A DNA stretch of 64,000 nucleotides from Turneriella sp. (GTDB lineage Bacteria > Spirochaetota > Leptospiria > Turneriellales > Turneriellaceae): contig CBDIID010000003.1 of NCBI GenBank assembly GCA_965279515.1, positions 608,001 through 672,000 on the forward strand. The letters are read 5' to 3'. Under the pieces are notes generated by a model. The model ran no database searches. It had not been told where the DNA came from and saw only the letters and a program-made list of their open reading frames with translations. The position numbers and the translations under genes are program-made. The first letter of the stretch is position 1; every line of letters starts with the position of its first letter. Shown one piece after another: positions 23,121 through 52,660 of this stretch.

Positions 23121-24038
23121 TCAGATTTTTGCGGCGCGCGCCGCTAAGCCCCGTGCGACGCGGCTGGTCTCCGCATCGTTGCAGAGCGCCAGGCTTAATT
23201 CCCAAAGCCTGTCCTGGGCCGCGCGATCCAGGATATCCGCGTTTTCCTTTATCTCGCTATAAGCATGCTTTTTCCAGGTGAACAGCTTACCGGATTTCTC
23301 CAGGCTGTTGTTCTGCGCTTCGAGAAATAACGGCGCCATTTCTCTGCCGCAGTCTTCAATGGAAATAAACGTTCCGAAAAATTTCATGAGCCGGGCCATG
23401 AATTTCATGCCTTTCGGGATGATATTCAGCTGATTCGTCCAGACGGTCTTGTGAATATGGTAACTAATGAAGGCCGGCGGCTTTTGCAACGGTGCGTACA
23501 ATGCATGCAGCTTGTGCATCAGCATGCGCTTGGCGGCCATGCCCTGAAAGATTCCCCGCTCAAAGTTCCATTTCTTTTGCAACTGGAGGTCATCCCAAAA
23601 GATCTGCCCGTAGTTTGTGGCGTTGAAAATAATACGCCCCCCGGTTGTCGAACTTTCCAGTAAGGGCAAGAGGTTGAGCGCCAGCATGAACTGCGAGAGG
23701 TAGTTCACCTGAAAATGCGCATCCATACCATCTTCGGTCTCGATGCGGCGCGCCGCATAGCCGAGCCCCGCATTAATGAAGAGGGCGTCGAGAGACTGAT
23801 GTTTTTTGCGCAGCTCGCCGACCGCAGCCCTGACATCGCTGAGTTTCATGAGGTCGCATACGATGAGGGATGTTCTCGTGTTCCCGGTGCCGCTTTCGAT
23901 TTCGCGGAGTACCGTTTCGCCCAGGGTTTTTGACCGGCAGAGCAGGATCAGCTCATGGCTGTGCATCTCGGCGGCGGCGAGAATTTTGGCCACTCCCTTA
24001 CCCATGCCGTTGCTCGCACCCGTGATCAGGATCTTCAT
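23121..24038 (-). CDS. Short-chain dehydrogenase/reductase (atypical)
   Basis: ITGASNGMG, INAG and FQVNYLS motifs; catalytic YxxxK appears altered (MAAK). Confidence 0.85.
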   Translation of the reverse strand: MKILITGASNGMGKGVAKILAAAEMHSHELILLCRSKTLGETVLREIESGTGNTRTSLIVCDLMKLSDVRAAVGELRKKHQSLDALFINAGLGYAARRIETEDGMDAHFQVNYLSQFMLALNLLPLLESSTTGGRIIFNATNYGQIFWDDLQLQKKWNFERGIFQGMAAKRMLMHKLHALYAPLQKPPAFISYHIHKTVWTNQLNIIPKGMKFMARLMKFFGTFISIEDCGREMAPLFLEAQNNSLEKSGKLFTWKKHAYSEIKENADILDRAAQDRLWELSLALCNDAETSRVARGLAARAAKI

Positions 24039-24250
24039 AGATTATTCGGTCGATAAATCTTTTATACTCTGGCAAGAGCAAAACACAGTCGTATGAAAGT
24101 CCCGGCGTGATAAGGGTATTTCGGCGGTGGAGTATTCCCTAGGCGACTGCGGCGTGGCCCGGCACATGCCCCCTCGCGTTAGCCGAACCCTGGCCTGATC
24201 CGTCGCTGGAAATAAAAAACAGCAGGAAAAGTGAAATTGTTCCCACATAG

Positions 24251-24275
24251 AAAAAAAAGGCCGGCAAAGCCGGCC
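24251..24275 (-). terminator. Rho-independent terminator following the tRNA-like 3' end (also at 25774-25800)
   Basis: Minus strand GGCCGGC-TTT-GCCGGCC followed by T8. Confidence 0.8.
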
Positions 24276-24282
24276 CCGGTCG

Positions 24283-24340
24283 TGCGTCCCGAGGGGAACC
24301 CGCCAGTGAACCTGAATGGGAGGTGGAGGTGCCGCTATAA
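24283..24340. mobile_element. Junction J1: att-like site, left boundary of the accessory array
   Basis: TGCGTCCCGAGGGGAACCCGCCAGTGAACCTGAATGGGAGGTGGAGGTGCCGC; related to six other sites. Confidence 0.7.
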
Positions 24341-24392
24341 AGGCAGATGCGATTTTTGTTGATTTTTTGATCCCATTTAGCCCATTGAGCGT

Positions 24393-24596
24393 ATGTCAGC
24401 TAAGGCCGAGCTAGTATCCTATTTAGAAACCTTGCCGGACGAACTTACGACAGCCGATCTATTGTACGAAACCTATTTCTTTCACGGTGTTAAATCCGGC
24501 TTAAATGACATCGAAAACGAAAAGACCCAGTCACATGATGAAGTCATACGGAGACATGAAGCGTGGCGAAAATCTCGTGGTCTGACTTCGCCTTAA
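24393..24596 (+). CDS. Putative antitoxin
   Basis: 67 aa, LETLPDE...GLNDIENEKTQSHDEV; overlaps the toxin gene. Confidence 0.8.
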   Translation: MSAKAELVSYLETLPDELTTADLLYETYFFHGVKSGLNDIENEKTQSHDEVIRRHEAWRKSRGLTSP

Positions 24597-24880
24597 ATCA
24601 TCTGGAAGAAATCCGCGACGACCTTGCCCGGTATTCTCTTCAGGCAGCAGATCGCACCTATTCGGGTATTGTGGAACATGTCGGCCTCTTAAGTGCGAAT
24701 CCTTTGCTCGGTAGAACAGTTCCTGAATTTCCCGCAAGCCCCTTGCAAGAAATTATTCATGATGATTATCGCATCGTTTATAGAACCGACGCTGACATGG
24801 TCAGAGTTGTTTTTATCGCTCACGGCAAACGCGATCTGAGGAAGTTTCTCAGGATGATGATCGATACACAGAACAATTGA
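24563..24880 (+). CDS. RelE/ParE-family toxin
   Basis: ISWSDFALNHLEEI, GRTVPE, YRIVY and HGKRD motifs. Confidence 0.88.
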   Translation: MAKISWSDFALNHLEEIRDDLARYSLQAADRTYSGIVEHVGLLSANPLLGRTVPEFPASPLQEIIHDDYRIVYRTDADMVRVVFIAHGKRDLRKFLRMMIDTQNN

Positions 24881-24917
24881 GCGGACGAATGGCTAAACTT
24901 TGCTTGAGATGAACTCT

Positions 24918-25046
24918 GGTTCGATTCCCCGACGGGGTCAGTGACTTATTGACCTAAAACAATAAAAAAGCCCAAAGATGAACCAATGAAATCAAGGGTT
25001 CACCTTTGGGTGAACTATGCGTCCCCTAAGGAATGCCGTTCGAACC
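24918..25046. mobile_element. End module and junction J2
   Basis: GGTTCGATTCCCCGACGGGGTCA, hairpin CCCAAAGATGAACC/GGTTCACCTTTGGG, then TGCGTCCCCTAAGGAATGCCGTTCGAACC. Confidence 0.7.
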
Positions 25047-25063
25047 GTCTTGTTTAAGTAAGG

Positions 25064-25231
25064 TTATTTACCTGTTTTCGCCTTTTTTTTAGGTTTTATT
25101 GTCCGGACAACGAAACGCGTATTTGTTTGTTTCGCCAGTTTGCGTGCATAGGCTGTCGCCTCGCGAAGGGATTTATTGATAGCCACATTTTCCGGGCTCA
25201 AGGGCTTTGATTTAAGTGCTTTTGCTTTCAT
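25064..25231 (-). CDS. Small basic protein coupled to the zeta-like ATPase
   Basis: 55 aa (MKAKALKSK...); start overlaps the upstream ORF end. Confidence 0.6.
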   Translation of the reverse strand: MKAKALKSKPLSPENVAINKSLREATAYARKLAKQTNTRFVVRTIKPKKKAKTGK

Positions 25232-25733
25232 GATCACTCGTTTCCAGTAAACGCATTGGAGCAGGACTACTGTCATATATCTTCCATGAGTCGGCAAGTT
25301 TTTTATAACTCGGCAGGTTTTCCAAGCCACGAATAAACCGCCTGCGAATAACATCGGCAGGAATATTGTGACCGCCTTGTTTGACCCGCTGTCTGACACG
25401 TTCGATGGCAAAATCCGCATTCGGAAGACTCAGGAAAATTATCTCCACGTGATAACCTTTCTTCTTCCAGCTATCGATCCGCCGTAGGTAATTCTTTGCT
25501 GACAATGTTGTCTCAAAAGCAAAGCTCACCTTTTGCTCCGCCAAATGGCTCATCTGCTTGAGTAATATACGTCCCGCTTCGACTGCAGCAAGCTCCGGCT
25601 TTAAAGGGGCAATACCTGAAGCCAAAATATCAGCATTCAGGTAATGCTTTATGTCCGGATAGTTCTTGAGAAAGAATTTTGCAAACGTCGTCTTGCCTGC
25701 CCCGTTTGGTCCCGCAATGATGAAGACCTTCAT
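25212..25733 (-). CDS. Zeta-toxin-like P-loop kinase / predicted ATPase
   Basis: IAGPNGAGKTT, NAD, FETTLS and RVRQRVKQGGHNIP..IRRRF motifs. Confidence 0.88.
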   Translation of the reverse strand: MKVFIIAGPNGAGKTTFAKFFLKNYPDIKHYLNADILASGIAPLKPELAAVEAGRILLKQMSHLAEQKVSFAFETTLSAKNYLRRIDSWKKKGYHVEIIFLSLPNADFAIERVRQRVKQGGHNIPADVIRRRFIRGLENLPSYKKLADSWKIYDSSPAPMRLLETSDHESKST

Positions 25734-25917
25734 TGTGCCCAGAAGGTCAGGACTACAACTTTACATTGGCAACAAAAAAAAAAGGCCGGCAAAGCCGGCC
25801 CCGATCGTGCGTCCCGTGGGGAACCCGCCGGTGAACCTGTGTGGGAGGTGGAGGTGCCGCTATAAAGGCAGATGCGATTTTTGTTGATTTTTTGATCCCA
25901 TTTAGCCCATTGAGCGT

Positions 25918-26121
25918 ATGTCAGCTAAGGCCGAGCTAGTATCCTATTTAGAAACCTTGCCGGACGAACTTACGACAGCCGATCTATTGTACGAAACCTA
26001 TTTCTTTCACGGTGTTAAATCCGGCTTAAATGACATCGAAAACGAAAAGACCCAGTCACATGATGAAGTCATACGGAGACATGAAGCGTGGCGAAAATCT
26101 CGTGGTCTGACTTCGCCTTAA
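25918..26121 (+). CDS. Putative antitoxin (second copy)
   Basis: Protein identical to 24393..24596. Confidence 0.8.
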   Translation: MSAKAELVSYLETLPDELTTADLLYETYFFHGVKSGLNDIENEKTQSHDEVIRRHEAWRKSRGLTSP

Positions 26122-26405
26122 ATCATCTGGAAGAAATCCGCGACGACCTTGCCCGGTATTCTCTTCAGGCAGCAGATCGCACCTATTCGGGTATTGTGGA
26201 ACATGTCGGCCTCTTAAGTGCGAATCCTTTGCTAGGTAGAACAGTTCCTGAATTTCCCGCAAGCCCCTTGCAAGAAATTATTCATGATGATTATCGCATC
26301 GTTTATAGAACCGACGCTGACATGGTCAGAGTTGTTTTTATCGCTCACGGCAAACGCGATCTGAGGAAGTTTCTCAGGATGATGATCGATACACAGAACA
26401 ATTGA
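26088..26405 (+). CDS. RelE/ParE-family toxin (second copy)
   Basis: Protein identical to 24563..24880. Confidence 0.88.
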   Translation: MAKISWSDFALNHLEEIRDDLARYSLQAADRTYSGIVEHVGLLSANPLLGRTVPEFPASPLQEIIHDDYRIVYRTDADMVRVVFIAHGKRDLRKFLRMMIDTQNN

Positions 26406-26442
26406 GCGGACGAATGGCTAAACTTTGCTTGAGATGAACTCT

Positions 26443-26589
26443 GGTTCGATTCCCCGACGGGGTCAGTGACTTATTGACCTAAAACAATAAAAAAGCCCAA
26501 AGATGAACCAATGAAATCAAGGGTTCACCTTTGGGTCTCCTATGCGTCCCGTGAGGCACCCATCGGTGAACCTGAGTGGCAGATTGAGG
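26443..26589. repeat. End module and junction J4; direct repeat with 39563-39708
   Basis: About 146 bp near-identical to 39563-39708. Confidence 0.9.
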
Positions 26590-26845
26590 TGCCGCTCGCG
26601 TGATGCAGCTAATTTGGAAGCCGACAACTTCATTTTTATCTGACCCCAGAAATGGATGGACTCCCGTTTGTTGAGTCAGCCTACGCCGGGGCATACGTTT
26701 ACCTAATACTGACTCAAAATAGTCTAACCCTACTCATATCGGCCCCTACAGGTAATAGAAGCATAACTTCCCGGTTTGTTAACGTAAGAAATCATATGTT
26801 GCCCCTTAAGGTAATCTTGAATCAGACCGGAAATATGTTGCCACT

Positions 26846-29800
26846 TTGAGAGATAAACTACTGCCTGACCGCCGCTTGCAAAATATAAGTCGCCATATCA
26901 TTATTCCACGCTTGCGCTTTGTTGCGAAGTGGGTTGCGTTTTTTACCTTAACATCCGGGTATTGGCCTTTGTTCAGCGCGGTCGACATTAATGAGTCGAC
27001 CACTTCCGTAGACATACACCCTGAGATATTCGTCGCCGAAGACGCGGCGAAGAGATTGTCAATCGCAGATGTGCTGGCCGGCAAGCTGGATTTTCACTTG
27101 ATTCAAGGCCAGACTGTAGCCCCAGGATTTACCAAAAGCGCGTACTGGGTAAAGTTTCCGTACAGCCTCACGGCGCTAAAACAATGGATTCTCGAGCTTG
27201 AATGGCCGCACCTTGAATACCTGGACTTATACATATATGACGGCCAAACACAAATTAAGAGCCGAATGAGTGGTTACATGCGCGCCCCTTCGGCTCGCGA
27301 CTATCTGAATCGAAATTTCATCTTTGACCTACCTAAGACAGACGGAAAAAGGTTCGATGTTTACATTCGCTTCGAATGCCAGGTGCCGCTGATCGTCCCC
27401 ATTGCAATAAGAACGCTCGGCGACACCTTTATCAAGAATGCTGCTGAAAAAATGTTTTATGGATTTGTATTCGGTGTTATCGGGATTATGCTTTTGTATA
27501 ATTTTTTTCTTTTCTTGACCTTGCGCGACATCAATTATCTTAATTATGTTTTCTTTTCGCTCTGTTTCGCCGGTTACAGTGTTGCCGTGAGCGGCTATCT
27601 TCGGGAATTTTTACCCGATTATCCCCGAGTAAATCTCTACGGTGTACCTGCGGTGGTGTCATTGGTGTGGCTCAGCAATTACTGGCTTGTCCGTACGTTC
27701 CTGGAATTGAAGAGTCGTAGCAAAACACTCTACTGGATTTATACGGCAGGCATCCTGATTTCTCTTTTCGGTTTTCTTCCTGCAAGCTTTATCTATCCAT
27801 TTCACACCGACATACTGCTGGATTTTCATTCATTGATTTCAGGGCTATTACTCCTAATCTCTTCGGGGTATGTCTGGCTGCGCGGCCACAGGGCCGCTCG
27901 TTATATGTTCTTGGCTTTCATCTCCTGGATCAGCGGCATGATTTTGTTGCTGGCGCGCAATTGGGGGCTTCTACCGCACAATTTTTTTACCACGCATGCG
28001 CTCCAAATAGGTTCGTTGCTCGAAATGTCGTTATTCTCACTCGCCCTCGCCGATCGCATTAATATCATCAAAGCGGAACGGGAACAAGCGCAACGTGGCG
28101 CGCTGGAGAGCGAAAAGAAAGCAGTTGAAAGCCTGAAGAAAGCGGAGGCAATCAAGGATACTTTTCTAGCGCACACGTCTCATGAATTGCGGACCCCTCT
28201 ACAGGGTATTATGGGCCTAACGGAAACAATTTTAGCTCAGACCGGCGATGTCACAATGCGCGAAAACGCGGACCTAATCATGCAAAGCGCTCGCCGCTTA
28301 TCGAATCTGATCAACGATATTCTTGACTATTCACGCATGAAAGAGCACGACATCATGCTCAATCGGGCCGATCTAGACCTTGGGCTACAAGTCAATAAAG
28401 TTATGCGAAGCCTCGAATTTGCGTCCAGGAGTAAAGGGGTTCCAATCTTCAACAACATTCGCACTGGTACCGTCTTCGTGAGTGCGGACGAACAGCGGTT
28501 ACAGCAAATTTTGTTCAATCTGATTGGGAATGCTCTGAAGTTTACGACAATCGGCTCTGTCAGTATAGAGGCAATGGAAGAGAGCGGGCAGGTTTCAATC
28601 CACATACGCGACACGGGTCGAGGAATTCCAGCCCCGAAAATCGAAGGAATATTCCAAAGGTTTGGTCGAGTCGACGATAACAATACCGACGGCACGGGGC
28701 TTGGTCTTACGATCACGAAAAGCCTGGTAGAACTCCACGGTGGAAGGATCCACGTCGAATCCATAGTAGATCGCGGCTCAACCTTTACGTTCAGTTTACG
28801 TTCGGCGCAAAGTTGCGGAGAACTGGCACCATCAGCAGAAATTCAAGCTGCAAATGCCACCGTAAGACAGGTAGCGATAAAATCGAAATACGTGCTCATC
28901 GTCGACGACGATCCTTTTATTTTGCGGAGTACTTCAGAACATCTGCGTCGCCGCGGCTTCGAGGTGGCTACCGCGCACGACGGTGCCTCGGCGCGTAGTC
29001 ATTTATTAGAAGGGGAAATCCCCCCCATACTTGTGGTATTAGATCTAATGTTGCCCGACGTTTCGGGTATTCAACTCTGTCGCGAATTTCGGGAAAAATA
29101 CGCCGCGAAAGACTTGCCGATTCTAATGCTGACAGCGCGCACTGAATTTAGGGATTTTCTTAGCGCAGCAAACGCGGGCGCAAACGATTATCTGACCAAA
29201 CCATTTGAAACTGCCGACTTGTTTCTGCGGATCGATAATCTTCTGACGCTGGCTACATTGCGCAGAGACCTGGAGACAACGGAAAGCCAGTATCTACGAC
29301 GGGTTTATGAAGACATGCACGACCATCTCGGCAGCTTGCTGACTGATATTTCGGTAATGACTGGTCAGCTACGCGAGGGCGAACATTTCGATTCGGCCGT
29401 CGTTCGGGAATTACAAAAGCAGAGCGCCTACGCGCTGCGAATTCTGCGCGAGCGTCTGCAAGCAATGGCCGATCAGGCCGAGCTGACGAAAGATTTTTTC
29501 GGCAGCCTAAACGCACAACTGTTGAGGCGGTACATAAACGCCGGGCGAACCTTGCGCTTCACCATTGAAAAAGAAGTATCGCCTCAGCTTATGCGCGAGG
29601 AAAATATGCTACTGCGCAGGGAGATCTATTTGCTCGTCAGCGAAATTGCCACGAATGACCTTAAATACGGTGTGAACGAGGCCGTTTGGTCGTGGTGGTG
29701 CGAGTCCGCGTTGCTTTGCCTAAAAATTACGACGCATAGCAATTATAACCCGACGATTCAAAAAAGAGGATTGGGTACGGCCAGCATCGCGAACCGCATG

Positions 29801-29905
29801 GCGGCGGTGGGTGGAAAGATTAGCTACGAATTGCGGGAAACTCTGCTCGACATAAGCGTTGAATTCCCCATGATTGCTCAGGAAACTTCATCGTTCCCTA
29901 TCTAA
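26846..29905 (+). CDS. 7TMR-DISM hybrid sensor histidine kinase
   Basis: DISMED2, 7TM, SHELRTPL, NALKFT/DTGRGI/GTGLGL, REC (DDD, DLMLP), then a degenerate HisKA_3-like DMHDHLG; start uncertain. Confidence 0.9.
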   Translation: MRDKLLPDRRLQNISRHIIIPRLRFVAKWVAFFTLTSGYWPLFSAVDINESTTSVDIHPEIFVAEDAAKRLSIADVLAGKLDFHLIQGQTVAPGFTKSAYWVKFPYSLTALKQWILELEWPHLEYLDLYIYDGQTQIKSRMSGYMRAPSARDYLNRNFIFDLPKTDGKRFDVYIRFECQVPLIVPIAIRTLGDTFIKNAAEKMFYGFVFGVIGIMLLYNFFLFLTLRDINYLNYVFFSLCFAGYSVAVSGYLREFLPDYPRVNLYGVPAVVSLVWLSNYWLVRTFLELKSRSKTLYWIYTAGILISLFGFLPASFIYPFHTDILLDFHSLISGLLLLISSGYVWLRGHRAARYMFLAFISWISGMILLLARNWGLLPHNFFTTHALQIGSLLEMSLFSLALADRINIIKAEREQAQRGALESEKKAVESLKKAEAIKDTFLAHTSHELRTPLQGIMGLTETILAQTGDVTMRENADLIMQSARRLSNLINDILDYSRMKEHDIMLNRADLDLGLQVNKVMRSLEFASRSKGVPIFNNIRTGTVFVSADEQRLQQILFNLIGNALKFTTIGSVSIEAMEESGQVSIHIRDTGRGIPAPKIEGIFQRFGRVDDNNTDGTGLGLTITKSLVELHGGRIHVESIVDRGSTFTFSLRSAQSCGELAPSAEIQAANATVRQVAIKSKYVLIVDDDPFILRSTSEHLRRRGFEVATAHDGASARSHLLEGEIPPILVVLDLMLPDVSGIQLCREFREKYAAKDLPILMLTARTEFRDFLSAANAGANDYLTKPFETADLFLRIDNLLTLATLRRDLETTESQYLRRVYEDMHDHLGSLLTDISVMTGQLREGEHFDSAVVRELQKQSAYALRILRERLQAMADQAELTKDFFGSLNAQLLRRYINAGRTLRFTIEKEVSPQLMREENMLLRREIYLLVSEIATNDLKYGVNEAVWSWWCESALLCLKITTHSNYNPTIQKRGLGTASIANRMAAVGGKISYELRETLLDISVEFPMIAQETSSFPI

Positions 29906-29909
29906 CCAG

Positions 29910-30530
29910 CTATAGATTAAACTTTTTCATCAACTGAATGCGCGAATGTACGCCGAATTTCTTGTAGATATGCTTGATGTGCGTCCGCACGGTATCGAAC
30001 GTAATGCCGAGTTTGTGAGCCACCTGTGTCGCACTCGCCCCGGTCGATAGTTCTTCCAGTATGTCTCTTTCGCGGGGCGTCAATCCATCGAGCTCGGTAT
30101 TACGTACGGGCGCGCCTTGTTTCATCACGCGGAAAATTCGCAGGGCAATGACCGGCGATATGGAACCTTTGCCTTCCGCTACATCTTTGACAGCTTTGCC
30201 CAACTCGCCGACTTCAGATTTGGCAATATAGCCGACCGCCCCGGCGGAAAGCCCGTCGAGTATGCTGGATTCATCCGCCTGATTGGTCAAGATCATGCAA
30301 TTGAGGTCAGGTATTTGACCCATGATTTCATAGATGAGCTTTATGCCCTCGGGTTTCGGCAGATTCAAATCGACAATCAGGACATCGAGGTCCCGTACGA
30401 CACCCAGTTGCTGCCGCAGCTTCTCGGCGTCCTGCCACGTAAAGACTTCGCTGCCAGGCATTTGATCCTTTAAAATTTGCGTCACCTGCTTTAGAAATTT
30501 CCCGTCGTCATCAATTATTCCGATACGCAT
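29910..30530 (-). CDS. NarL/LuxR-family response regulator
   Basis: REC domain (IDDD, VDLNLP) plus LTPRE...TVRTHIKHIYKK HTH. Confidence 0.92.
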   Translation of the reverse strand: MRIGIIDDDGKFLKQVTQILKDQMPGSEVFTWQDAEKLRQQLGVVRDLDVLIVDLNLPKPEGIKLIYEIMGQIPDLNCMILTNQADESSILDGLSAGAVGYIAKSEVGELGKAVKDVAEGKGSISPVIALRIFRVMKQGAPVRNTELDGLTPRERDILEELSTGASATQVAHKLGITFDTVRTHIKHIYKKFGVHSRIQLMKKFNL

Positions 30531-30607
30531 ACTTTTCCACAAACCTTGGCACACTTCGCAGATCTTCTCTAATCTGGCATGTCATTAATTACCACGTGGC
30601 AGGGGTT

Positions 30608-30667
30608 CTGTCCATACCCCAGATGGGGGAGAAGTGGCGCCCAGTGGACCTCGCCCAATTGGGGGAT
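30608..30667. promoter_or_regulatory. Two palindromic CCC(C)AATTGGGG-type operator sites in the divergent promoter region
   Basis: ATACCCCAGATGGGGGAG and TCGCCCAATTGGGGGAT; the motif recurs at 32238 and 35220. Confidence 0.6.
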
Positions 30668-30737
30668 TTACTTCGTTCTAAAATTAACTTAGGCATAGAC
30701 GGTGCAGTAAAATTTATGAACTATCAGGAGTCCGAGT

Positions 30738-32216
30738 ATGCAGAGAACACTCTTAATAATTTTGATCACTATTTTTCTTGTCACATGCGGAAAAACTGGC
30801 AACGAGAATACAGCAGCAGGTACAACGGGACCGGATACCACACCGCCAACGTTAGTCTCTTCAATCCCTGCGAACACCGCAACGGGCGTGGCTCCGTGCA
30901 GCGGCAACCCGTGCATCGGTAAAATTACACTCTCGTTCAGCGAGAGCATGGATACGACGTTTTCTCAGACTTTAACTACCGAGATAAGTAATAATAATGC
31001 CGGCACGACCTATGCAAGCGCACCGAACAATGGCACAACGTTTACCTGGAGTACGACCACATTTAGCAACGACACACTCACGATCAACATTAGCTGGCAC
31101 TGGTTTCCTGAGAATTCGAAAATCCGCTACACTGTCACGGCTGCGGGGATCAAAGATTTGGCAGGCAATGTGATTGGGGCTGATGTGCAGCGGACCTTCA
31201 CAACAACCGCACCACGACCAGGATTTGCCATCGCCGATACGGGCCAAACGCAATGCAGCTCGGGTGCTTCGGGCAACAACACCATGGCAGCCTGTCCGCA
31301 AACAATTACAGGCCAAGACGGAAATTCTGTCGATAAACCCGTGGCACGCAGCTTTACGGGCCCCACGCAGTATGGTGTCACGGGGAACTACACCACTACT
31401 GACAATGTTACCGGACTTGTTTGGGCTTCGTGCAGCGAAGGCCTTTCGGGCGCGACCTGCGCCACAGGCACGGCATCGACGCTGGTATGGACTAACGCAA
31501 TCAACCAATGCGCGGCGCTGAATGCAGCCAACTCCGGTGTCGGTTATGCAGGTAAGACAACATGGCGGCTACCGACTTCAATGGAGTTGGAGTCAATACC
31601 CAATTTGGGAACCTCGTCGCCCGCAATCGACGTGGCATTTTTTCCGGGGACAGTTTCCTCGACTTATTGGTCATCAAGCACCAATGTCGCCGCCGCGGCT
31701 GATGCCTGGCATATTAACATGAGCGACGGTCGCTCTTACATTGCAACGAGTAAAACAACGAGCAACCCGGTCCGTTGCGTTGCCGGTGCTTCGGCAGGTC
31801 CGGGCACAGTGCCTGCTTATACTGACAATGCCGATGGCACCGTGACCGATGCCCGGATAAGCCTGCGCTGGCAAAAGTGCAGTAACGGGCTCAGCGGGAT
31901 TTCTTGCGGTACTGGCACGGCGACGCAAAGCACTTGGGTGAATGCGATTGCCTATTGTCAGGGTCTAAGCCTCGCAAGCAAAACATGGAGACTTCCTTCA
32001 AAAAATGAACTACTGAGTCTCATGGATCGAAGCAAGTCAAGCCCGGCTATCGACACGACGTATTTTCCTGCGACAGTTGCATCCGCTTATTGGTCTTCGA
32101 GTACCTATATTCCGTCTGGTGGTAATGGTGGTTGGTTCGTTGGCCTAAACAATGCATCGGGCAACGGCACTAAGACGGATAACAACTATGTGCGTTGCGT
32201 GACGGACGGATCGTGA
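30738..32216 (+). CDS. Lipoprotein with Ig-like domain and two DUF1566 (Lcl-like) domains
   Basis: LVTC lipobox, DTTPP..FSESMD..KDLAGN; TDNVTGLVW..WRLPT..YWSS..VRCV occurs twice. Confidence 0.88.
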   Translation: MQRTLLIILITIFLVTCGKTGNENTAAGTTGPDTTPPTLVSSIPANTATGVAPCSGNPCIGKITLSFSESMDTTFSQTLTTEISNNNAGTTYASAPNNGTTFTWSTTTFSNDTLTINISWHWFPENSKIRYTVTAAGIKDLAGNVIGADVQRTFTTTAPRPGFAIADTGQTQCSSGASGNNTMAACPQTITGQDGNSVDKPVARSFTGPTQYGVTGNYTTTDNVTGLVWASCSEGLSGATCATGTASTLVWTNAINQCAALNAANSGVGYAGKTTWRLPTSMELESIPNLGTSSPAIDVAFFPGTVSSTYWSSSTNVAAAADAWHINMSDGRSYIATSKTTSNPVRCVAGASAGPGTVPAYTDNADGTVTDARISLRWQKCSNGLSGISCGTGTATQSTWVNAIAYCQGLSLASKTWRLPSKNELLSLMDRSKSSPAIDTTYFPATVASAYWSSSTYIPSGGNGGWFVGLNNASGNGTKTDNNYVRCVTDGS

Positions 32217-32237
32217 TGCATACACTGCGGGTCTAGC

Positions 32238-32255
32238 ATCACCCAATTGGGGTAT
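32238..32255. promoter_or_regulatory. Palindromic operator-like site
   Basis: ATCACCCAATTGGGGTAT upstream of 32295. Confidence 0.55.
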
Positions 32256-32294
32256 TGATGAACTACCTTAAATAGGTTATGTCGACACCATTGT

Positions 32295-33326
32295 ATGTTA
32301 AAAAAGCACCTAACAAGCACCCCGGCTTTCATCTGCCTGATACTATTTTTTTCCTTATTACCTTTTGGCTCCATTGCCTCGGAGCCCGGTAATCAGAGGA
32401 TAAAACGCAAGGTACTGCTACTGGATTTTCAGAATACGGCGAAGAATGCGAGCTATGATTATGTCAAAAAGCAAATCTCTGATAACATCAAAGCTGAGCT
32501 GCAAAAAACAGATAAACTGATCCTCATCGATCAGAAAACTTTCGAAAAGCTACACCCCAATTTACTGATACCCAAGTTGACTCAGGCTGAAGCCGCCGAG
32601 CTTGCCGAAGTTGCCGGCTGTGAAGCGGTGGTTATCGGCAAATTTCTCACGACGCCGAATCGTTTGCGGATACAAGCGCAACTTGTCGATGCGGTAACCG
32701 GCGAGGTATTGCTTTCAGAAAAGGCCGAAGGTGAAATCGCCACGAAAGTTTCGGAAAGTATCGATCTGGTGGTGAAACCTCTCAGCACAGGCATGGACGA
32801 AACAATACCGGCACTGGAATCCAGGCGCTCCCCCGCGGATGTTTCGGCGGCGTCAAAGTCGCGGGTTACCGCTTACGCGCATATTCTGGGCGGCTACTAC
32901 TTCGCATCGGGTAATAGCGCAGCGTATTTCAATAATGGTTTTTCCGGAAAAGCGTCCGTCGCATTGCCCCTGGCAAAATACCTCGCACCGTATGCATCGG
33001 CGGGGGCTCTGCTTTATTCAGGCAAGACTGCATTCAACAATGGAGCCTTCTATTTCGCAGACGCCGGCCTTTCCGTACCTTTGCAATTATCAAACCGTTT
33101 CATCCTGATACCCTACATTGCCGCCGGCATTTTCGGCGGGAGTTTAACATCGGGCGCCACGTCGGCCAACCTACTCGCCCCGGCTTTCGACGCCGGACTC
33201 TATGCGACTTATTATTTCACGCAAAGATTAGGCCTAACAATTTCGGGGTCTGTTTTTTATGTTTTGGATAAGCCCAATGATTTAGTATTCACGGTCGTTT
33301 CGGCTGGATTGGGCTTAAGGTTTTGA
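32295..33326 (+). CDS. CsgG/TolB-N-like domain plus outer-membrane beta-barrel
   Basis: LLDFQN..AQLVDAVTGE; C-terminal GLGLRF barrel signature. Confidence 0.7.
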   Translation: MLKKHLTSTPAFICLILFFSLLPFGSIASEPGNQRIKRKVLLLDFQNTAKNASYDYVKKQISDNIKAELQKTDKLILIDQKTFEKLHPNLLIPKLTQAEAAELAEVAGCEAVVIGKFLTTPNRLRIQAQLVDAVTGEVLLSEKAEGEIATKVSESIDLVVKPLSTGMDETIPALESRRSPADVSAASKSRVTAYAHILGGYYFASGNSAAYFNNGFSGKASVALPLAKYLAPYASAGALLYSGKTAFNNGAFYFADAGLSVPLQLSNRFILIPYIAAGIFGGSLTSGATSANLLAPAFDAGLYATYYFTQRLGLTISGSVFYVLDKPNDLVFTVVSAGLGLRF

Positions 33327-33343
33327 TTAAGGAGATTCGCATC

Positions 33344-34303
33344 ATGAGAAATTTAACGAAAATAAACTTACTTGTCGTCGCCTTGGGTTTAGGGCCAGCG
33401 GCCTGTCAATACTCGGGCGATTTCCTAGCAAAATCAGCGGCAGGGGCGACGACATCAAGCACCTTTGGACAAGGCGGTCAAAATTGGACAACGCGAACTT
33501 TGCCGACCAGCAGCGGCTGGGTGTCGGTAACCTATGGTAATGGAACTTTTGTTGCCGTAGCAAGTGCCAGCACTGCGGCTGCGACCTCTCCTGACGGCAT
33601 AACATGGACTGCCCAAACATTACCCAGTAGCAGTAATTGGAATTCAGTAACCTACGGCAACGGTACCTTTGTCGCTGTAGCCGGAGGCCCCAGCACCACT
33701 GCTGCAACGTCGCCAGATGGTATTACGTGGACGCCACAAACGATGCCAAGCAGTCAAACTTGGGGCCATGTTGCATATGGCAATGGTACTTTCGTCGCGA
33801 TTGCTAATACGACCAGCGTTGCTGCGACTTCACCTGACGGGGCGACGTGGACCCCAAGAACTCTTTCTAGCAGTGCGCCGTGGGGCAACATGTTTTTTGG
33901 CAACGGTATTTTTGTTGCTATGGGTGGCACCGTTGCCGTAACTTCTGCCGATGGCATAAATTGGGCTTCGCAAACTCTGCCCGTCAACCTGTCAAAAGGT
34001 ACTTACGGAAACGGAATTTTCCTAATTGTAGCCAGTGGCTTTTTTTCATTTACTTCGCCAAGTAGCACTACTTGGACGGCGCGCAGCATGCCAAGCAATA
34101 GCAATTGGAATACCATTGCATACGGCAATAATACTTTCGTGGCTTTCGTCCCCAGTTCAAATATCGCGGCGACATCGGGTGATGGCATCACTTGGACCCT
34201 TAGAATGATGCCAAGCAGCAATAATTGGAATTCTGCGACCTATGGCAACGGAACTTTTGTTGTTCTTGGTGGCTCGGGTACCGTAGCGGCGACTTCACCA
34301 TGA
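33344..34303 (+). CDS. Lipoprotein with about 6 tandem beta-propeller-like repeats
   Basis: PAAC lipobox; repeats of W.SVTYGNGTFVAV..AATSPDGITWT. Confidence 0.8.
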   Translation: MRNLTKINLLVVALGLGPAACQYSGDFLAKSAAGATTSSTFGQGGQNWTTRTLPTSSGWVSVTYGNGTFVAVASASTAAATSPDGITWTAQTLPSSSNWNSVTYGNGTFVAVAGGPSTTAATSPDGITWTPQTMPSSQTWGHVAYGNGTFVAIANTTSVAATSPDGATWTPRTLSSSAPWGNMFFGNGIFVAMGGTVAVTSADGINWASQTLPVNLSKGTYGNGIFLIVASGFFSFTSPSSTTWTARSMPSNSNWNTIAYGNNTFVAFVPSSNIAATSGDGITWTLRMMPSSNNWNSATYGNGTFVVLGGSGTVAATSP

Positions 34304-34382
34304 GCGTGCCGGTACACTGGTTGCGCTGCGTCAATGGAAATTTCTCAATAAGTTAGAAAATTAAGAAAAGGAAGGTAAGTTT

Positions 34383-35177
34383 ATGAACATAATGAAGAAT
34401 ATTCTTTTAGTCGTGGGCGTTCTGGGCTTGGCGATAAGTCTTGGCGCAGCATCGGCTGCGAAAGGGAAAAACGTCGACAACAATAAAAAAAGCGAGAAGC
34501 CAGAGAGCGAAGTTCCGGTCGTTACACCTACAAGTGCTTCTTATCCGAAAAATATTCTGATTGCGATTCCTGAAGATGCTTCAGACAAACTATACGACAA
34601 CCAGACAAAAAAGATATCTTTAAATTTCAAAGTCATAGACCATGTTGAGGAACTGAGGATCCTACGCGAAGAAAAAGAATTAACCAAAGATCCTAAAAGC
34701 ACGGAAAAAAACATTTCGGACAAACGCCTGTATACTCTGAACAGGATAAATATCGAAAGAAATTATTTAGGCTGTTGGGGCTGGTCGGCCATCGCGCCCT
34801 GCATCGGCTCCCTAAATCTATCAGCGCATACATTTATGGACATACTTGGCTCGAAAGATAAGCAGGATATTTCAGCGCAACCTCAGATTTTTATTGATGG
34901 CAGCTTGCTAAACCTGGACCTTCTTTATACAACACAAAGCGTATGGCTCGGTTTTGGTGGTAGTGTTGGCACAAGTACTATTTCAAACGAAAAAGTGATC
35001 GTGTTCAAGGGAGGTATTGTGCTACAATCAGAAAACTTACGAGCTGAATTTGGCATTATGCATTTATCCGACGTATATTTCGAGAAAGATAACACGGGTG
35101 TATATTTCGGAATCGGTGTCCCGATAATCGGCTACGCAACCGCATTAAAAGAAAAATTGGCGAGTAAAGGACTTTGA
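34383..35177 (+). CDS. Hypothetical exported protein
   Basis: Signal peptide; beta-rich C-terminus. Confidence 0.6.
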   Translation: MNIMKNILLVVGVLGLAISLGAASAAKGKNVDNNKKSEKPESEVPVVTPTSASYPKNILIAIPEDASDKLYDNQTKKISLNFKVIDHVEELRILREEKELTKDPKSTEKNISDKRLYTLNRINIERNYLGCWGWSAIAPCIGSLNLSAHTFMDILGSKDKQDISAQPQIFIDGSLLNLDLLYTTQSVWLGFGGSVGTSTISNEKVIVFKGGIVLQSENLRAEFGIMHLSDVYFEKDNTGVYFGIGVPIIGYATALKEKLASKGL

Positions 35178-35219
35178 TTTGGTGAACCTCTGAAAAGCCC
35201 ATAAATAGACGCGGCGAGC

Positions 35220-35243
35220 CTCCCCCAATTGGGGTATGGACAG
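35220..35243. promoter_or_regulatory. Palindromic operator-like site
   Basis: CTCCCCCAATTGGGGTATGGACAG is the reverse complement of 30608-30631 with 2 mismatches. Confidence 0.6.
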
Positions 35244-35273
35244 GTCACCAGAAATGGACTATCCAAACCCACC

Positions 35274-36746
35274 ATGAAGCCGAAAAAACTTGCCGCCTGC
35301 GCCCTGTTCATCGCTGCAGGCCACCTTCACGCCGCGCAAATCAACTTCACCTCGGGCACACCCGCCTTGGCTGCCGATGTGAACGCGAATTTTACGGAAC
35401 TTTATGGCTCAATGTGGATGAAGTCCGGTGCTGATTTAAGTTACAGTGCGGGGAATGTGGGGCTTGGGGTGGCGAGTCCGGGCTCTAAGTTGCATATCAC
35501 GCAGGCTGTGTCTGGCATAACCGGAGGTATGAGACTGACTGATGGGGTAGCGTCGTTAAATATGTATGGCTCTGGCGATGGGCATTTTCACCTTAATGCA
35601 GCAAGTGGCACAAGTCATATTATTCTTGCGGATACGGGCGGAAACATTGGCATCGGAACGGCGACACCGAGCAATAAACTCGAAATCGTCGGGGGTGGCA
35701 TCACTCTGCCCTATTCGACCATCCATACAGGTTCCATAAAGTTTACAAATTCAGGCGGGACTCCGGTTAATATTTTGGGCATCAAGAGCGCCGCTGATAT
35801 CTATTTGCGCAGCATTGACAATGGTGCTACCTCGGGCTTAGTCTTTCAGGATAGTGCAGGTGTAGATAGGGTTAAGTTCCAAAATGATGGTAATGTCGGT
35901 ATTGGTACGGCAACTCCAGGGGCGCAGTTGCACGTCAACGCATTAGCCGCCGGAGCGACCGGAATTACCAATGCCCGACAGAATGCGACAGCTTTCCTGC
36001 GCGGCTCGAATGGTGCATGGGGGCTTGCCATAGGGTCGATCGCCGCTACCAATGAAGCTTACTTGCAATCGATGGACGAAGTGCAAGGTAGTGGTCACGA
36101 TCTGCTTCTGAATCCATACAATGCCGGACGTGTGGGCATCCGCACAAACGCGATCACAACCACCTGCAACGCCAGCGCCACCCTATGCGTAAACGGTCAG
36201 GTTTGGTCGAATAGTACCCAACTCACCTCCGACGTCCGCTGGAAAAAAGACGTCTCGAAAATCCTTCTTAGCCCGGGATTTAAATCCGGGACTAAGGAGG
36301 GTTGGCACAAATTCCTCTCCCTCGCCCCATCGACCTATTACTGGCGCAAGAACGAGTTTCCTGATATGAACTTCGAAGACGGCAAGCAGTACGGTTTTAT
36401 TGCACAGAACGTGGAGCAAGCCTACCCGGAACTGATCAAAACGAATGGTGCTGGCTTCAAGAGCCTCAACTATTCAGGCTTGATTGCCATCAATACGTCC
36501 GCGATTCAGGAACTCAAGCGAGAGAAAGACGCGGAGATGGGGAAACTCACTTTCGCCCTTCGACAAGCTCAGGGCGACACTGCTGCTGCTCAGGCCGAAA
36601 ACAAAGCGCTGCGCGCCGAATTAGCCGAAACCAAGAAGAGCCTGTCCCGAGTAGCGCGGCGTATCGAGGTACAGGAAAAGGAAACCGCCCAACGCCTGTC
36701 TCGGCTGGAAAAGTTTTTGAGTGCTGGCATAGTGGCTCGGAGATGA
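35274..36746 (+). CDS. Secreted fibre-like protein with peptidase S74 intramolecular chaperone domain
   Basis: Signal peptide, GNVGIGT repeats, SDVRWK, GFIAQNVE..PEL, coiled coil. Confidence 0.85.
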   Translation: MKPKKLAACALFIAAGHLHAAQINFTSGTPALAADVNANFTELYGSMWMKSGADLSYSAGNVGLGVASPGSKLHITQAVSGITGGMRLTDGVASLNMYGSGDGHFHLNAASGTSHIILADTGGNIGIGTATPSNKLEIVGGGITLPYSTIHTGSIKFTNSGGTPVNILGIKSAADIYLRSIDNGATSGLVFQDSAGVDRVKFQNDGNVGIGTATPGAQLHVNALAAGATGITNARQNATAFLRGSNGAWGLAIGSIAATNEAYLQSMDEVQGSGHDLLLNPYNAGRVGIRTNAITTTCNASATLCVNGQVWSNSTQLTSDVRWKKDVSKILLSPGFKSGTKEGWHKFLSLAPSTYYWRKNEFPDMNFEDGKQYGFIAQNVEQAYPELIKTNGAGFKSLNYSGLIAINTSAIQELKREKDAEMGKLTFALRQAQGDTAAAQAENKALRAELAETKKSLSRVARRIEVQEKETAQRLSRLEKFLSAGIVARR

Positions 36747-36825
36747 GAGGTGAGCCTCTAGAAATCCCTAGTTTCCTGGTAGGCCAAAGGCCGTACCGAG
36801 AACTAAGGGAAAGTGGGGATAATAA

Positions 36826-37887
36826 ATGACTCGCTTTGCTGGCTATTCAATGCTAGCCGGTCTTTTCAACACCCCCGTCTTAGCCGGGCTGGTTCTTCAC
36901 TTCTCTCTTTTCCCCCTTGCCGCCGCACCCATGAAGGCGGGTATCATTACGCTCACGGGTGATGACGAGATCAAGACCGTTGGCGGTACCGAAAAGAAAC
37001 TCATTTTTCTGGACTTCTACAACGAATCTAACGATACAAATTTGCAATATCTATCGAATTCGATCGGCGATGCGGTCGATGCCGCAATTAAGGGGAAATA
37101 CCGCTACAAGGTAATTGCATCCGCCATCTGGAAAAAATACGCAGCCGGGCAAAAATGGAACGAACAGGACTTCTATCGTGTCAAAAAGATACGCGAGATG
37201 GGCAAGGCGCTGGGCGCCGACGGCGTCATCTATGGAAAGTACACTTCTAAAGAAGGTAATCTCGAAATTCAGGGCGCGATCTTTTCAGTGATCGACGGTG
37301 AAATCGTCGATGAACAAAAGGGAGCGACCCCCGTGAGCGCCGAGATGTTCGAGACGATCAATTTGGTTTCCGAAAACCTCGCCAAAAAGATCAAAGACTT
37401 GTTCGTGCCCTCTGACCGCGGCGCGCTCATGCGTTCACTGGTTTTTCCAGGTTGGGGGCACATGTACAAGCAGCGCCACAACTGGGGCTATGTCTGGGGC
37501 GGCGCGGCGGCGGCATCGCTTGCCTATACCGCGACGATGCTCACGCTGTTTATCATCTATAAGGCGAAGTACGCGCAGTCTTCGCCGCCTGTCTATACCA
37601 ACGCATCGGGGCAGACAGGTCTCTACGATCAGACCGCCGCGCAGGCGGAATTCGACCGTCTCGAAAACACCGGCAACCAGTTCGGGCAACTCACGCTGAT
37701 TGGTGTCGGTGTTTCGGCGGCGATCTACGTGGCGGCGTTTGTTCATGCTTGGCTCATCGCGCCCGATCTGGGCAACGTCACACAGCCGGGCACGGTGAGC
37801 GCGTTGCCGCTGCATTTCTCCATAGGCAGCGAGGCGTGGCAGACGGGCGGCACGCGAACCCGCTTTTCGTATGCGTTCAGATTCTAA
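36826..37887 (+). CDS. CsgG/TolB-N-like domain plus DUF5683-like membrane region
   Basis: FLDFYN..GKALGADGVIYG; RSLVFPGWGHMY; terminal YAFRF. Confidence 0.65.
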   Translation: MTRFAGYSMLAGLFNTPVLAGLVLHFSLFPLAAAPMKAGIITLTGDDEIKTVGGTEKKLIFLDFYNESNDTNLQYLSNSIGDAVDAAIKGKYRYKVIASAIWKKYAAGQKWNEQDFYRVKKIREMGKALGADGVIYGKYTSKEGNLEIQGAIFSVIDGEIVDEQKGATPVSAEMFETINLVSENLAKKIKDLFVPSDRGALMRSLVFPGWGHMYKQRHNWGYVWGGAAAASLAYTATMLTLFIIYKAKYAQSSPPVYTNASGQTGLYDQTAAQAEFDRLENTGNQFGQLTLIGVGVSAAIYVAAFVHAWLIAPDLGNVTQPGTVSALPLHFSIGSEAWQTGGTRTRFSYAFRF

Positions 37888-37896
37888 GGGAGATTT

Positions 37897-39009: not shown

Positions 39010-39134
39010 GCCCACATTGCCCCAGAGGAAACGCTTAAATGGGCGTCTACCGATTATAGTTCCCGTTTTGCAATCCGGATGGCAATCATCTCCAGCCAGC
39101 AAATGTCGGTATCTTTTTTAAGAGTGCTGACGAA

Positions 39135-39407
39135 ATGGTTGTAGAAAAGCAGTCTCCGAAACCGAGAATCGTCTTTTCGGGTTTGATATTTCAAATCCAT
39201 CTAGCGCAAAACGAGGTCGTAATTTACCATCCGACGAATCTGCGGAAGCTGAGTGCGAGGCAAAAGCTAGAAATTAAAAGCCGCCGCTCGGGCGCACCAG
39301 TCGTAACGGTTAAGGTTGACCGGTTAAACTATACGAATGCGATTGCTTCTGTAGAATCGGGTTCTATTGAGCACATAGAAATAGCGGACTTGGTGTTGCT
39401 GTATTGA
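39135..39407 (+). CDS. Hypothetical protein (possibly 5'-truncated)
   Basis: 90-aa ORF co-oriented with the operon. Confidence 0.4.
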   Translation: MVVEKQSPKPRIVFSGLIFQIHLAQNEVVIYHPTNLRKLSARQKLEIKSRRSGAPVVTVKVDRLNYTNAIASVESGSIEHIEIADLVLLY

Positions 39408-39562
39408 TCAAAGCGATGCGGTGCTGTTGATACCCAAATTGCAAACTATTACTGAGGAGCTCAAAGCCTTGATGTAAAACAGCGTCAACTGCGATGATCT
39501 GCTGTCCCAAGCCTTCGGATCGATGACTTGGATGATTCGTTGGCGAATCTCATCTATGTGCG

Positions 39563-39708
39563 GGTTCGATTCCCCGACGGGGTCAGTGACTTATTGACCT
39601 AAAACAATAAAAAAGCCCAAAGATGAACCAATGAAATCAAGGGTTCACCTTTGGGTCTCCTATGCGCCCGTGAGGCACCCGCCGGTGAACCTGAGTGGCA
39701 GATTGAGG
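39563..39708. repeat. End module and junction J5; direct repeat with 26443-26589
   Basis: Same sequence as J4, with a 1-bp deletion in the core (TGCGCCCG). Confidence 0.9.
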
Positions 39709-39775
39709 CTGCTTTGTAAGGTCGCCGCAGCGTAAAAGGGTGAACATTACGCTTTTTGGAAATGACAGCGATGGA

Positions 39776-47018: not shown

Positions 47019-47086
47019 CCTAAAAAAATCCATCGGAGCAACCCGCCGGTGAACCTGAGTGGCAAATTGAGGTGAACCTTCCCTGA
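47019..47086. mobile_element. Junction J6 (internally deleted)
   Basis: ACCCGCCGGTGAACCTGAGTGGCAAATTGAGGT present; TGCGTCCC core absent. Confidence 0.65.
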
Positions 47087-52327: not shown

Positions 52328-52435
52328 ATGGGGAAAAATATTGTCATCTGCTGCGACGGTGCAGAAAACTAATTGTCTAAACACCATACAAATGTGGTCC
52401 GCGCCTTTTGCAGAATCCTTGGAATTTATGCCTAA
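52328..52435 (+). pseudogene. 5' remnant of a DUF2235 (Tle1-like alpha/beta hydrolase) gene
   Basis: MGKNIVICCDGAEN*LSKHHTNVVR matches the family N-terminal KxIVxCxDGTxN...TNV; internal stop; truncated at J7. Confidence 0.65.
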
Positions 52436-52540
52436 AATGCAGTCGGAACAACCCGCAGGTGTGGTGCACCTTTGGGCCTCCCGTGCGTCCCCGGGTATTC
52501 CCAATTACGAACCTGAGTGGGCGGTGGAGGTAGAACTGCC
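52431..52540. mobile_element. Junction J7
   Basis: CACCTTTGGG..TGCGTCCCCGGGTATTCCCAATTACGAACCTGAGTGGGCGGTGGAGGT. Confidence 0.7.
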
Positions 52541-52660
52541 CCCCTCCCTTAAAGGAAAAACAGAAGTAATAAGTCCTAAATACTGATTAAGGCCCCTCCA
52601 AACCCGCCTTGACGGCAGGGTACAGAAGCAATAGAATGTGTTTTGAAGTAATGTAAGCTT

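Follow-up and report, generated by a model that had tools for sequence, protein, structure and literature searches.

In the integration-dependent immunity of mycobacteriophages, the attachment (att) site attP lies inside a gene, there that of the repressor, and the free and integrated products differ in their C-terminus, one of them carrying a degradation tag; the integrases of these phages are of the tyrosine type. The target of Mx8 is a tRNA gene. In Mx8 it is the integrase coding sequence that contains attP, and integration makes a new 3' end that is reported to alter the behavior of the integrase without abolishing it (PMC6070905); both the Mx8 and SSV integrases are described as extending across attP (PMC4383910). 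Here we analyzed a 64,000-nucleotide stretch of the genome of a Turneriella sp. (the window; contig CBDIID010000003.1, positions 608,001 to 672,000, assembly GCA_965279515.1), which carries seven related junctions, J1 to J7. We think it probable that these junctions are the att sites of a tandem island array accreted at the 3' end of a tRNA-Glu(ttc) gene, that a large serine recombinase (LSR), with its own stop codon beyond the attP crossover, built this array, and that the peptide tail encoded on the P' side is joined to the integrase only in the attP or tandem state.

Like Mx8 IntP/IntX, this system has attP inside the integrase open reading frame (ORF) and acquires a recombinant gene with a new 3' end on integration. 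Unlike Mx8, which uses a tyrosine recombinase, it relies on an LSR, and only a short tail is exchanged (~17 aa versus 10 aa), on an extension that is probably disordered. The integrase works like the Mx8 family, yet it is no member of it. Among tyrosine recombinases, integrase genes that extend over attP are known (Mx8, SSV); judged from the sequences, this trait and the targeting of a tRNA gene, both of them tyrosine-integrase traits, extend here to the serine family. Compared with the degradation tag of the mycobacteriophages, the tails at this locus end in L, LA or LP and not in an ssrA-like AA.

As in the LSRs of Bxb1, phiC31 and the A118/LI type, we find the serine domain set, a quasi-palindromic attP of ~50 bp, short core identity and 25-bp half-sites, and an outer motif displaced between attP and attB may be a further resemblance; unlike in these LSRs, a tRNA gene serves as target and attP is crossed by the ORF. 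The strict attP x attB pairing of canonical LSRs (PMC3783163) would not lead one to expect the attP-like joints that stand here in a chromosomal array. The 2014 Islander paper gives tRNA-gene targeting as not known for serine integrases (PMC4383910), the word tRNA occurs 0 times in the main text of a 2022 LSR survey (PMC10083194), and in the open-access literature we found no later account of tRNA-targeting serine integrases, nor of an LSR C-terminus exchanged by integration. In accretion arrays as described for other elements, decayed members lacking an integrase keep their att sites, and a newcomer enters at the one that adjoins the target gene (PMC5704250). The present locus resembles such accretion of cis-mobilizable elements (CIMEs) at tRNA 3' ends in having attL at the far end, att joints between the islands and the integrase island adjoining the tRNA gene. 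It differs from the described CIME cases, which mainly involve tyrosine integrases and long core identity, in its LSR and its internal P-P' joints.

An integrase gene that crosses its att site

A comparison of the interval 26430-26610, which contains J4, with the whole genome returned strong matches within the region of the window plus one 30-nt match of 100% identity at C3:699404-699433. This match is the 3' end of the integrase ORF, ending ...SKGGVHLWVSYAS (...GVHLWVSYAS), and the J4 stretch concerned belongs to its left arm, termed D3. The gene lies 65 kb downstream, outside the window (C3:697777-699465, equal to L021:7777-9465), and encodes an LSR of 562 aa. Its Pfam domains are those of a serine recombinase only, with none of the tyrosine type: Resolvase (PF00239, E 1.8e-26), Recombinase (PF07508, E 8.9e-22) and Zn_ribbon_recom (PF13408, E 8.3e-11). 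In the window itself, Pfam detected no recombinase domain in the 29 ORFs scanned and ARAGORN detected no tRNA, and general Pfam scans of the array ORFs identified no directionality factor.

The integrase ORF crosses the core TGCGTCCC and enters the opposite-strand tRNA-Glu(ttc), from which it takes its last 10 codons (PRGIEPLLRE, then stop). The same ten terminal residues are found in the nearest database relatives, P0003 (55% identity) and P0004 (52%), and in the integrase of the sister genome G015, which also adjoins tRNA-Glu. An integrase ORF crossing attP, as in the Mx8 IntP/IntX type, is thus seen in DNA in the genome under study (G000) and in G015, and in protein sequence in P0003 and P0004. 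A preliminary description made from the letters of the window alone had predicted a recombinase ending in VHLW..AS.. with an alternative tail at a tRNA junction, and this is what the LSR and its three relatives present. It had also placed the att site within the 3' end of an integrase gene; the LSR ORF does cross the core, but J4 is not at an integrase end, the gene being 65 kb away.

In an AlphaFold model of the integrase (50-sequence alignment), with a mean predicted local distance difference test (pLDDT) score of 85.7, the fold ends near residue 510, long helices occupy residues 378-458 downstream of the zinc ribbon, and residues 523-562 have a pLDDT below 50. Because of these low values, the exchanged end would sit on an extension of ~40 residues that is probably flexible, and in the model the exchanged piece looks like a short motif on that extension.

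Other integrases at tRNA genes were also observed. An LSR in G181 that is 28% identical reads into tRNA-Glu(ctc). In L262 (G010), another LSR-like C-terminus (...ITYNEDKTVTIAYKAPFRHFIRPEVVALKNESDPRRFYILMRP...) enters the same tRNA-Glu end in a different frame, at a locus that is cut; from its sequence this looks like a second recombinase lineage on the same site in the genus. C-termini of the antisense tRNA T-arm type (DSN.., G[FILV]EP, TRT..) were counted in 52 of the 150 best LSR representatives (P0063-P0211) against 5-6 of 150 internal control windows, a heuristic figure, for which the DNA was looked at in G181 alone. This suggests that many serine integrases may target tRNA genes and cross their own attP; if the heuristic holds, the arrangement would be common and overlooked.

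Att sites and junctions

In the window, a repeat finder returned six plus-strand copies of a 54-nt core (starting at 24283, 25808, 26543, 39662, 47026 and 52484) and three copies of the 107-nt left arm D3 (starting at 24918, 26443 and 39563). Across the 4.9-Mb genome the motif GAACCTGNNTGGNNNNTNGAGG has 6 forward and 0 reverse matches, against 0 for a reversed-pattern control, and all six are confined to a 28-kb stretch (C3:632308-660530), a clustering that far exceeds chance. An exact 29-mer allowing <=3 mismatches matched J4 only and was too strict a query. Four public runs (2 samples, 1 study) were available as Logan contigs, which break at repeats. Their contigs span 23800-40200 with no differing letters listed, the sole discrepancy being a 1-nt deletion at 34888 in the contig of one run, and the loose ends at 26521, 26550, 39677 and 39708 are other repeat copies that reveal no new joint. 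Contig depth is ~2x over the duplicated toxin-antitoxin unit described below, so an assembly artifact does not account for the repeats.

The genus has 14 genomes; the flanks of tRNA-Glu were compared in 13 of them, and four empty tRNA-Glu sites were found (two loci in G013, and G007 and G014). Their order is a terminator-like hairpin ggccggcaatgccggcc, then ccgatcgTGCGT, then the tRNA end. The flank of the empty site (hairpin plus cgatcgTGCGT) equals the left half of J1 and J3, and this match identifies J1 and J3 as true attL sites (B-P'). The junction at the integrase is attR (P-B'). J4, J5 and J7 join a P-type left half to a P' right half and are therefore attP-like. Since TGCGTCCC is the only sequence common to attB, attL (J1/J3), attR and the attP-like sites, we place the crossover there.

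The attP-like site of J4 is a quasi-palindrome of 51 bp (26522..26572, plus strand) that reads GGTTC N5 TGGGT, then the core TGCGTCCC at 26543-26550, then ACCCA N5 GAACC. All P arms contain GGTTC N5 YGGGT and all P' arms [AT]CCCR N5 GAACC. This is an attP of the LSR type, a short quasi-palindrome of ~50 bp that is identical to attB over a few bases at the crossover. The distance from GAACC to the core is 17 nt in P' and 11 nt in B', a shift of 6 nt, and no matching motif was recognized in the B arm. In the model for the LI integrase the zinc-ribbon motif is displaced by 5 bp between attB and attP, and its structure with attP has half-sites of 25 bp (PMC3783163), in agreement with the 51-bp site here. 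On the P' side, and there only, conservation extends ~25 nt past the 25-bp half-site; its mirror image on the P side, to the left of GGTTC, differs between the arms of integrases and those of D3 type and shows no conservation.

Two readings that treat the repeat as a structure rather than an LSR site were considered. An integron attC reading was dropped upon finding the serine recombinase and the tRNA-Glu attB. It is scarcely credible to us that the repeat acts through structure, as an RNA or as a DNA hairpin (for instance a terminator, a small RNA or an integron attC-like site), even though single-sequence folds of 26430-26610 reach z ~-4 on both strands: the low energy stems from the att palindrome and the left arm, RNAalifold on eight copies gave -3.29 kcal/mol and no convincing helix, and Rfam gave 0 matches at gathering thresholds in the whole window.

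J1 (24259..24340, plus strand) has the hairpin terminator downstream of tRNA-Glu as its B arm, the core at 24283-24290 and a P' half-site whose last bases (24308-24312) are GAACC; its tail, RGEPASEPEWEVEVPL, has the stop at 24338-24340. J3 (25784..25865, plus strand) is the second attL-type site (B-P'), with the tail RGEPAGEPVWEVEVPL and a stop. J2 (24918..25049, plus strand) is attR-like: a D3 arm, consisting of a tRNA-Glu-like fragment and a relic integrase 3' end (...KSRVHLW), is followed by the core at 25018-25025 and, as right half, by a B' arm that resembles tRNA-Glu in degenerate form.

The D3 arm of J4 (26443..26549, plus strand) comprises an inverted tRNA-Glu-like fragment at ~26443-26462 and an integrase 3' relic of ~20 codons that ends in the P half-site GGTTCACCTTTGGGT; by eye, the relic KKPKDEPMKSRVHLWVSYAS resembles NKKDPKTLPNDGVRFWVSYAS of P0003. 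The stop-to-stop frame of J4 (26478..26603, plus strand) reads PKTIKKPKDEPMKSRVHLWVSYASREAPIGEPEWQIEVPLA and a stop, and its tail codons REAPIGEPEWQIEVPLA occupy 26551-26600 with the stop at 26601-26603, lying outside the symmetric att site from 26573 onward. We read J4, from its sequence, as a fossil attP-like joint of two integrase-less islands and not as the end of a live gene. The islands that flank it have retained both half-sites and probably represent satellites or cis-mobilizable remnants.

J5 (39563..39719, plus strand) is an attP-like joint of a D3 arm and the P' tail REAPAGEPEWQIEAAL with its stop. It has decayed, a 1-nt deletion in the core breaking the frame between arm and tail, and Val-to-Ala and Pro-to-Ala changes being present. 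J6 (47033..47086, plus strand) retains the P' tail only (SEQPAGEPEWQIEVNLP and a stop), with no recognizable P or B arm, no TGCGTCCC core and a stop 5 codons upstream of the tail half. J7 (52383..52586, plus strand; core 52484-52491) is the left boundary of the integrase-bearing island. Here a 37-codon relic of another LSR 3' end (...APFAESLEFMPKMQSEQPAGVVHLWASRAS) is fused in frame to the tail PGIPNYEPEWAVEVELPPSLKGKTEVISPKY, which ends in a stop. In BLASTP the relic is identical at 23/37 positions to the C-terminus of the LSR fragment P0065 (E 2e-12), and J7 can be read as a fossil of an integrase-tail fusion.

The preliminary description reported one plus-strand frame reading across the junctions. 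The sequence and frame of J4 are as it gave them and J1, J3, J6 and J7 translate as quoted; the frame runs across most copies, but it is broken in J5 by the core deletion and J6 holds the tail half alone.

Two side observations concern the arms. At 26443-26462, 39563-39582 and 24918-24937, and also in L269 (G018) beside tRNA-Glu, the first 19-20 nt of the D3 arm copy the tRNA-Glu T-arm and acceptor (GGGTTCGATTCCCC..GGG). The copy lies in the opposite orientation to the resident tRNA-Glu, ~60 nt before the P half-site; G000 and G018 have it in conserved form, G019 in degenerate form, and it may be an inversion product, or a terminator formed with the real tRNA end. On the attB side, L277 (G015) and L263, L270 and L272 (G013, G007) have, to the left of the attB, be it empty or occupied, a gene ending ...IYECTDDIIFIHAVFHASRDRTAIVERISQ and a stop, 12 codons before the first codon of the tail (Arg) and in the same frame. 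This in-frame gene end left of the attB hairpin is probably a coincidence; the left neighbor in G000 differs.

Constraint on the P' tail

The tail encoded on the P' side has the consensus R-x-x-P-x-x-E-P-E-W-x-[IV]-E-V-x-L-stop, 16-18 residues. It shares with the symmetric site only the bases CCC, for Pro, and GAACC, for Glu-Pro; beyond that site, from +26 to +50, come the E-W-x-[IV]-E-V-x-L codons and the stop. Ten copies were compared: the six of the window, the joint of G015, the joint on L225 (G018:C3:40928, also present in the metagenome contig L236), the decayed attL-type copy L242, and the attL of G015 (C4:361.56 kb), which was located via its B-arm hairpin and not via the tail.

The two G015 copies differ at 11/48 nt, distributed 0/1/10 over the three codon positions, with nine synonymous codon changes and one non-synonymous, and both encode EPEWQIEVPL with the stop codon at the same position (P=1.3e-4; ~0.006 after correction for 45 pairs). 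Over all ten copies the ratio of non-synonymous to synonymous change (pN/pS) is 0.48 in the frame of the preliminary description and 0.70-1.34 in the other five frames, and pairwise differences by codon position number 182/180/275. The 48-nt block has no indel in 10/10 copies, and a stop follows Leu directly in 6/10 copies and one codon later in two more. The tail is constrained at the protein level: the third-position bias, the lowest pN/pS in this frame and the conserved stop position argue that it is coding, and we take it to be translated in this frame now or to have been so until recently.

The positions of CCC and GAACC coincide with the symmetric half-site motif, as would be expected if the conservation were purely at the DNA level, with the P' arm serving as a long binding site, be it of the integrase, of a directionality factor or of some other protein, and the frame being an untranslated by-product. 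The retention of the tail in integrase-less islands (J1, J3, J4, G018) and the absence of a tail-bearing protein from the databases searched favor the same explanation. We nevertheless judge it unlikely, given that 10 of the 11 G015 differences fall at third positions while EPEWQIEVPL is identical, that the stop position is conserved, and that conservation reaches ~25 nt beyond a 25-bp half-site on the P' side with the region left of GGTTC unconserved between integrase and D3 arms.

From the core to EPEW the sequence evolves nearly neutrally, with pS and pN both ~0.36. This bears on a further alternative, in which the tails descend from an ancestral integrase 3' end as neutral relics with no present function and look alike only through the recent divergence of the islands. 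Decay is indeed visible in J5 (frameshift and substitutions), L242 (EPEWWIAVNF, no stop) and J6 (core lost). Yet the core-EPEW segment has diverged freely while EPEW..EV.L was kept, and the heavy synonymous change between the G015 copies indicates constraint rather than youth, which makes this explanation more improbable still than a DNA-level one. A tail with a protein-level constraint that serves the integrase remains the reading we prefer.

Where the tail could be translated is indicated by the attL copies, which have no upstream start: J1 reads KKKAGKAG... directly behind a stop codon, and in G015 a TAA and the hairpin precede the attL copy. Lacking a start in the attL state, the tail would be readable only when joined to an integrase 3' end. 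From the arrangement of the sites, the start would be supplied only by a P-P' joint with the integrase gene on its left, that is, in the excised circle or in an island stacked behind an integrase-bearing one. The D3-armed attP-like joints themselves could in principle encode an independent micro-protein of ~30 aa (MKSRVHLWVSYAS...EPEWQIEVPLA), there being a 30-aa ORF at 26511-26603 and an ATG in CCAATGAAA that is conserved in the D3-type arms of G000, G015 and G018. We give this little credence: the ATG is preceded by no Shine-Dalgarno-like purine run, startless attL copies hold the tail under the same constraint, and the D3 arm resembles the final codons of the integrases P0003 and P0004.

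The mechanism that we propose starts from the integrated state, in which the integrase ORF ends ...GVHLWVSYAS plus the 10 codons from the antisense tRNA gene. In the excised circle (attP) or a stacked island, P' would be placed behind the integrase 3' end and the tail would then be translated, the circle form thus making integrase-EPEWx[IV]EVxL. Integration would exchange the EPEW tail for tRNA-derived residues, and the two C-terminal forms may differ in activity, partner binding or stability and turnover, in which case integration would reset the enzyme, as has been reported for IntP/IntX of Mx8. The integrase C-terminus is probably swapped by the integration event, and this swap may act as a functional switch. 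Much more tentatively, EPEWx[IV]EVxL-COOH, carried by the LSR only while the element is free or stacked, might constitute a state memory, written by recombination, through which activity, directionality or turnover would be tuned, either without a directionality factor or alongside one; D3-ended integrase-less satellites might exploit it, and the mode could be widespread. Serine integrases are valued in genome engineering for their simple directional control, and recombination that rewrites the enzyme's own C-terminus would, if true, be a new control layer. In practical terms, gene callers will give such integrases wrong, tRNA-derived ends, and the limits of such islands will be drawn wrongly if attP is not reconstructed from attL and attR.

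Several points weigh against the proposal. The strongest pair of copies (G015) was chosen after viewing 45 pairs, the pN/pS contrast over all copies is moderate, and the copies are related, hence not independent. CCC and GAACC of the tail double as the att half-site, such that DNA and protein constraints overlap, and coding alone does not account for the tail in the integrase-less islands, which keep it too. The tail of J7, cognate to the integrase island of G000, lacks a stop after Leu and runs 15 codons on. The P-P' joints do not follow from the activity of canonical LSRs, in which attP recombines neither with attR nor with another attP; possible origins are insertion into attR as a surrogate attB, insertion of attB-bearing circles into chromosomal attP-like joints (the shape seen from J2 across the zeta-toxin module to J3), and homologous recombination between arms. 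No fused protein was found. A comparison of the 41-aa J4 peptide with longer proteins gave no candidate, weak evidence from a word-based search that required 3 shared 5-mers, and the EPEW..EV tail occurred in 0 of the best 150 of 55,729 hidden Markov model hits (1.84 billion representatives, in which 50%-identity clusters hide variants). The public-run contigs, which break at repeats and carry no circle information, contained no circular junction. Finally, the family is tiny, and all of its close members seen are in the integrated state (G000, G015, P0003 and P0004, and probably also P0065, a fragment). The claim of the preliminary description that the tail is joined only in a circular or tandem state is thus supported in part, by the startless attL copies and the protein-level constraint, but neither the fused protein nor the circular junction was found; its interpretation as a whole likewise stands in part, while the underlying observation is confirmed.

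Searches for further copies returned few. A related-locus search placed 1/41 loci in genome contigs as close (G015) and 0/28 loci in viral contigs, where the best identity was 27%. The 22-nt tail motif matched at least 117 stretches in genome contigs, and of the 117 loci translated one was real, the G015 locus. A core-plus-tail pattern gave 15 stretches in genome contigs and 16 in metagenome contigs, 27 of them chance matches and four real (L218, L225, L236, which is identical to L225, and L242). Within the family, the matches of a relaxed pattern in G001 and G002 encode EPVW and EPAW. The EPEW of P0103 is unrelated to the tail. TTGAGG in the tail was considered as a -35 promoter box and rejected by eye, the I/V codon change destroying it in J1, J3 and J7.

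The island array and its cargo

From left to right, the array of G000 consists of the attL J1, a 0.75-kb mini-island of the ParDE type, J2, a zeta-toxin module, the attL J3, the duplicated mini-island and J4. It continues with 13 kb encoding a histidine kinase, a response regulator and surface proteins, then J5, 7.4 kb, J6, 5.5 kb and J7, followed by 39 kb, the integrase and tRNA-Glu. In G015 an attL at 361.56 kb, 24 kb of sequence, a P-P' joint at 337.46 kb and a further 33 kb lead to the integrase and tRNA at 302.8 kb. In G018 a P-P' joint is followed by 4 kb and by a D3 arm directly at tRNA-Glu, and no integrase was found in this genome, which is 86% complete. Integrase-less, att-bounded segments are thus stacked, with seven junctions in G000, and the integrase adjoins the tRNA gene. 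We interpret this as the pattern of site-specific accretion with cis-mobilizable remnants.

The first mini-island (E1, 24393..24880, plus strand) carries an antitoxin-like ORF at 24393-24596 and a ParE toxin at 24563-24880 (Pfam ParE_toxin, E 1.2e-13). Its duplicate (25918-26405, plus strand) is 98% identical at a spacing of 1525. Between J2 and J3, on the minus strand, a zeta-toxin-like kinase (25212-25733; Pfam Zeta_toxin, E 5.3e-13) and a small upstream partner ORF occupy 25064..25733. The duplication involves a 774-nt unit of B arm, P' tail, ParDE-type pair and D3 arm, present twice with 98% identity (24251-25024 and 25776-26549), and the zeta-toxin module between the two units has a B'-like arm on one side and a B arm on the other. 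This P-B'...B-P' shape is the one to be expected if a circle carrying attB had inserted at an attP-like joint.

Toxin-antitoxin modules recur at these joints. L225, beside the G018 joint, carries at 3231-3838 and 4861-5388 a toxin that looks from its sequence to be of the PIN type, with a partner ORF, and a frameshifted homologue of the zeta-like kinase of G000.

The 39-kb cargo between J7 and the integrase includes an SNF2 helicase, a methylase, DUF499, Rad52, Gp157, DUF932, a sigma factor and an insertion sequence. The part at 52661-61864 encodes a 1144-aa protein with RNase_H_2 and an AAA_11/AAA_12 helicase, an IrrE-type M78 peptidase and a 747-aa fusion of Prok-E2_A, ThiF and Prok-JAB. Judged by these genes, together with the SNF2 helicase, methylase and DUF499 on L020, the integrase island looks like a phage-defense island. 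Elsewhere in the window, 33503-34260 holds five copies of a 50-nt repeat spaced at 120-123 nt (345 nt over one gap); they sit in an ORF (33323-34303) with a weak match to the EPTP domain, which indicates a repeat protein with ~40 aa per unit.

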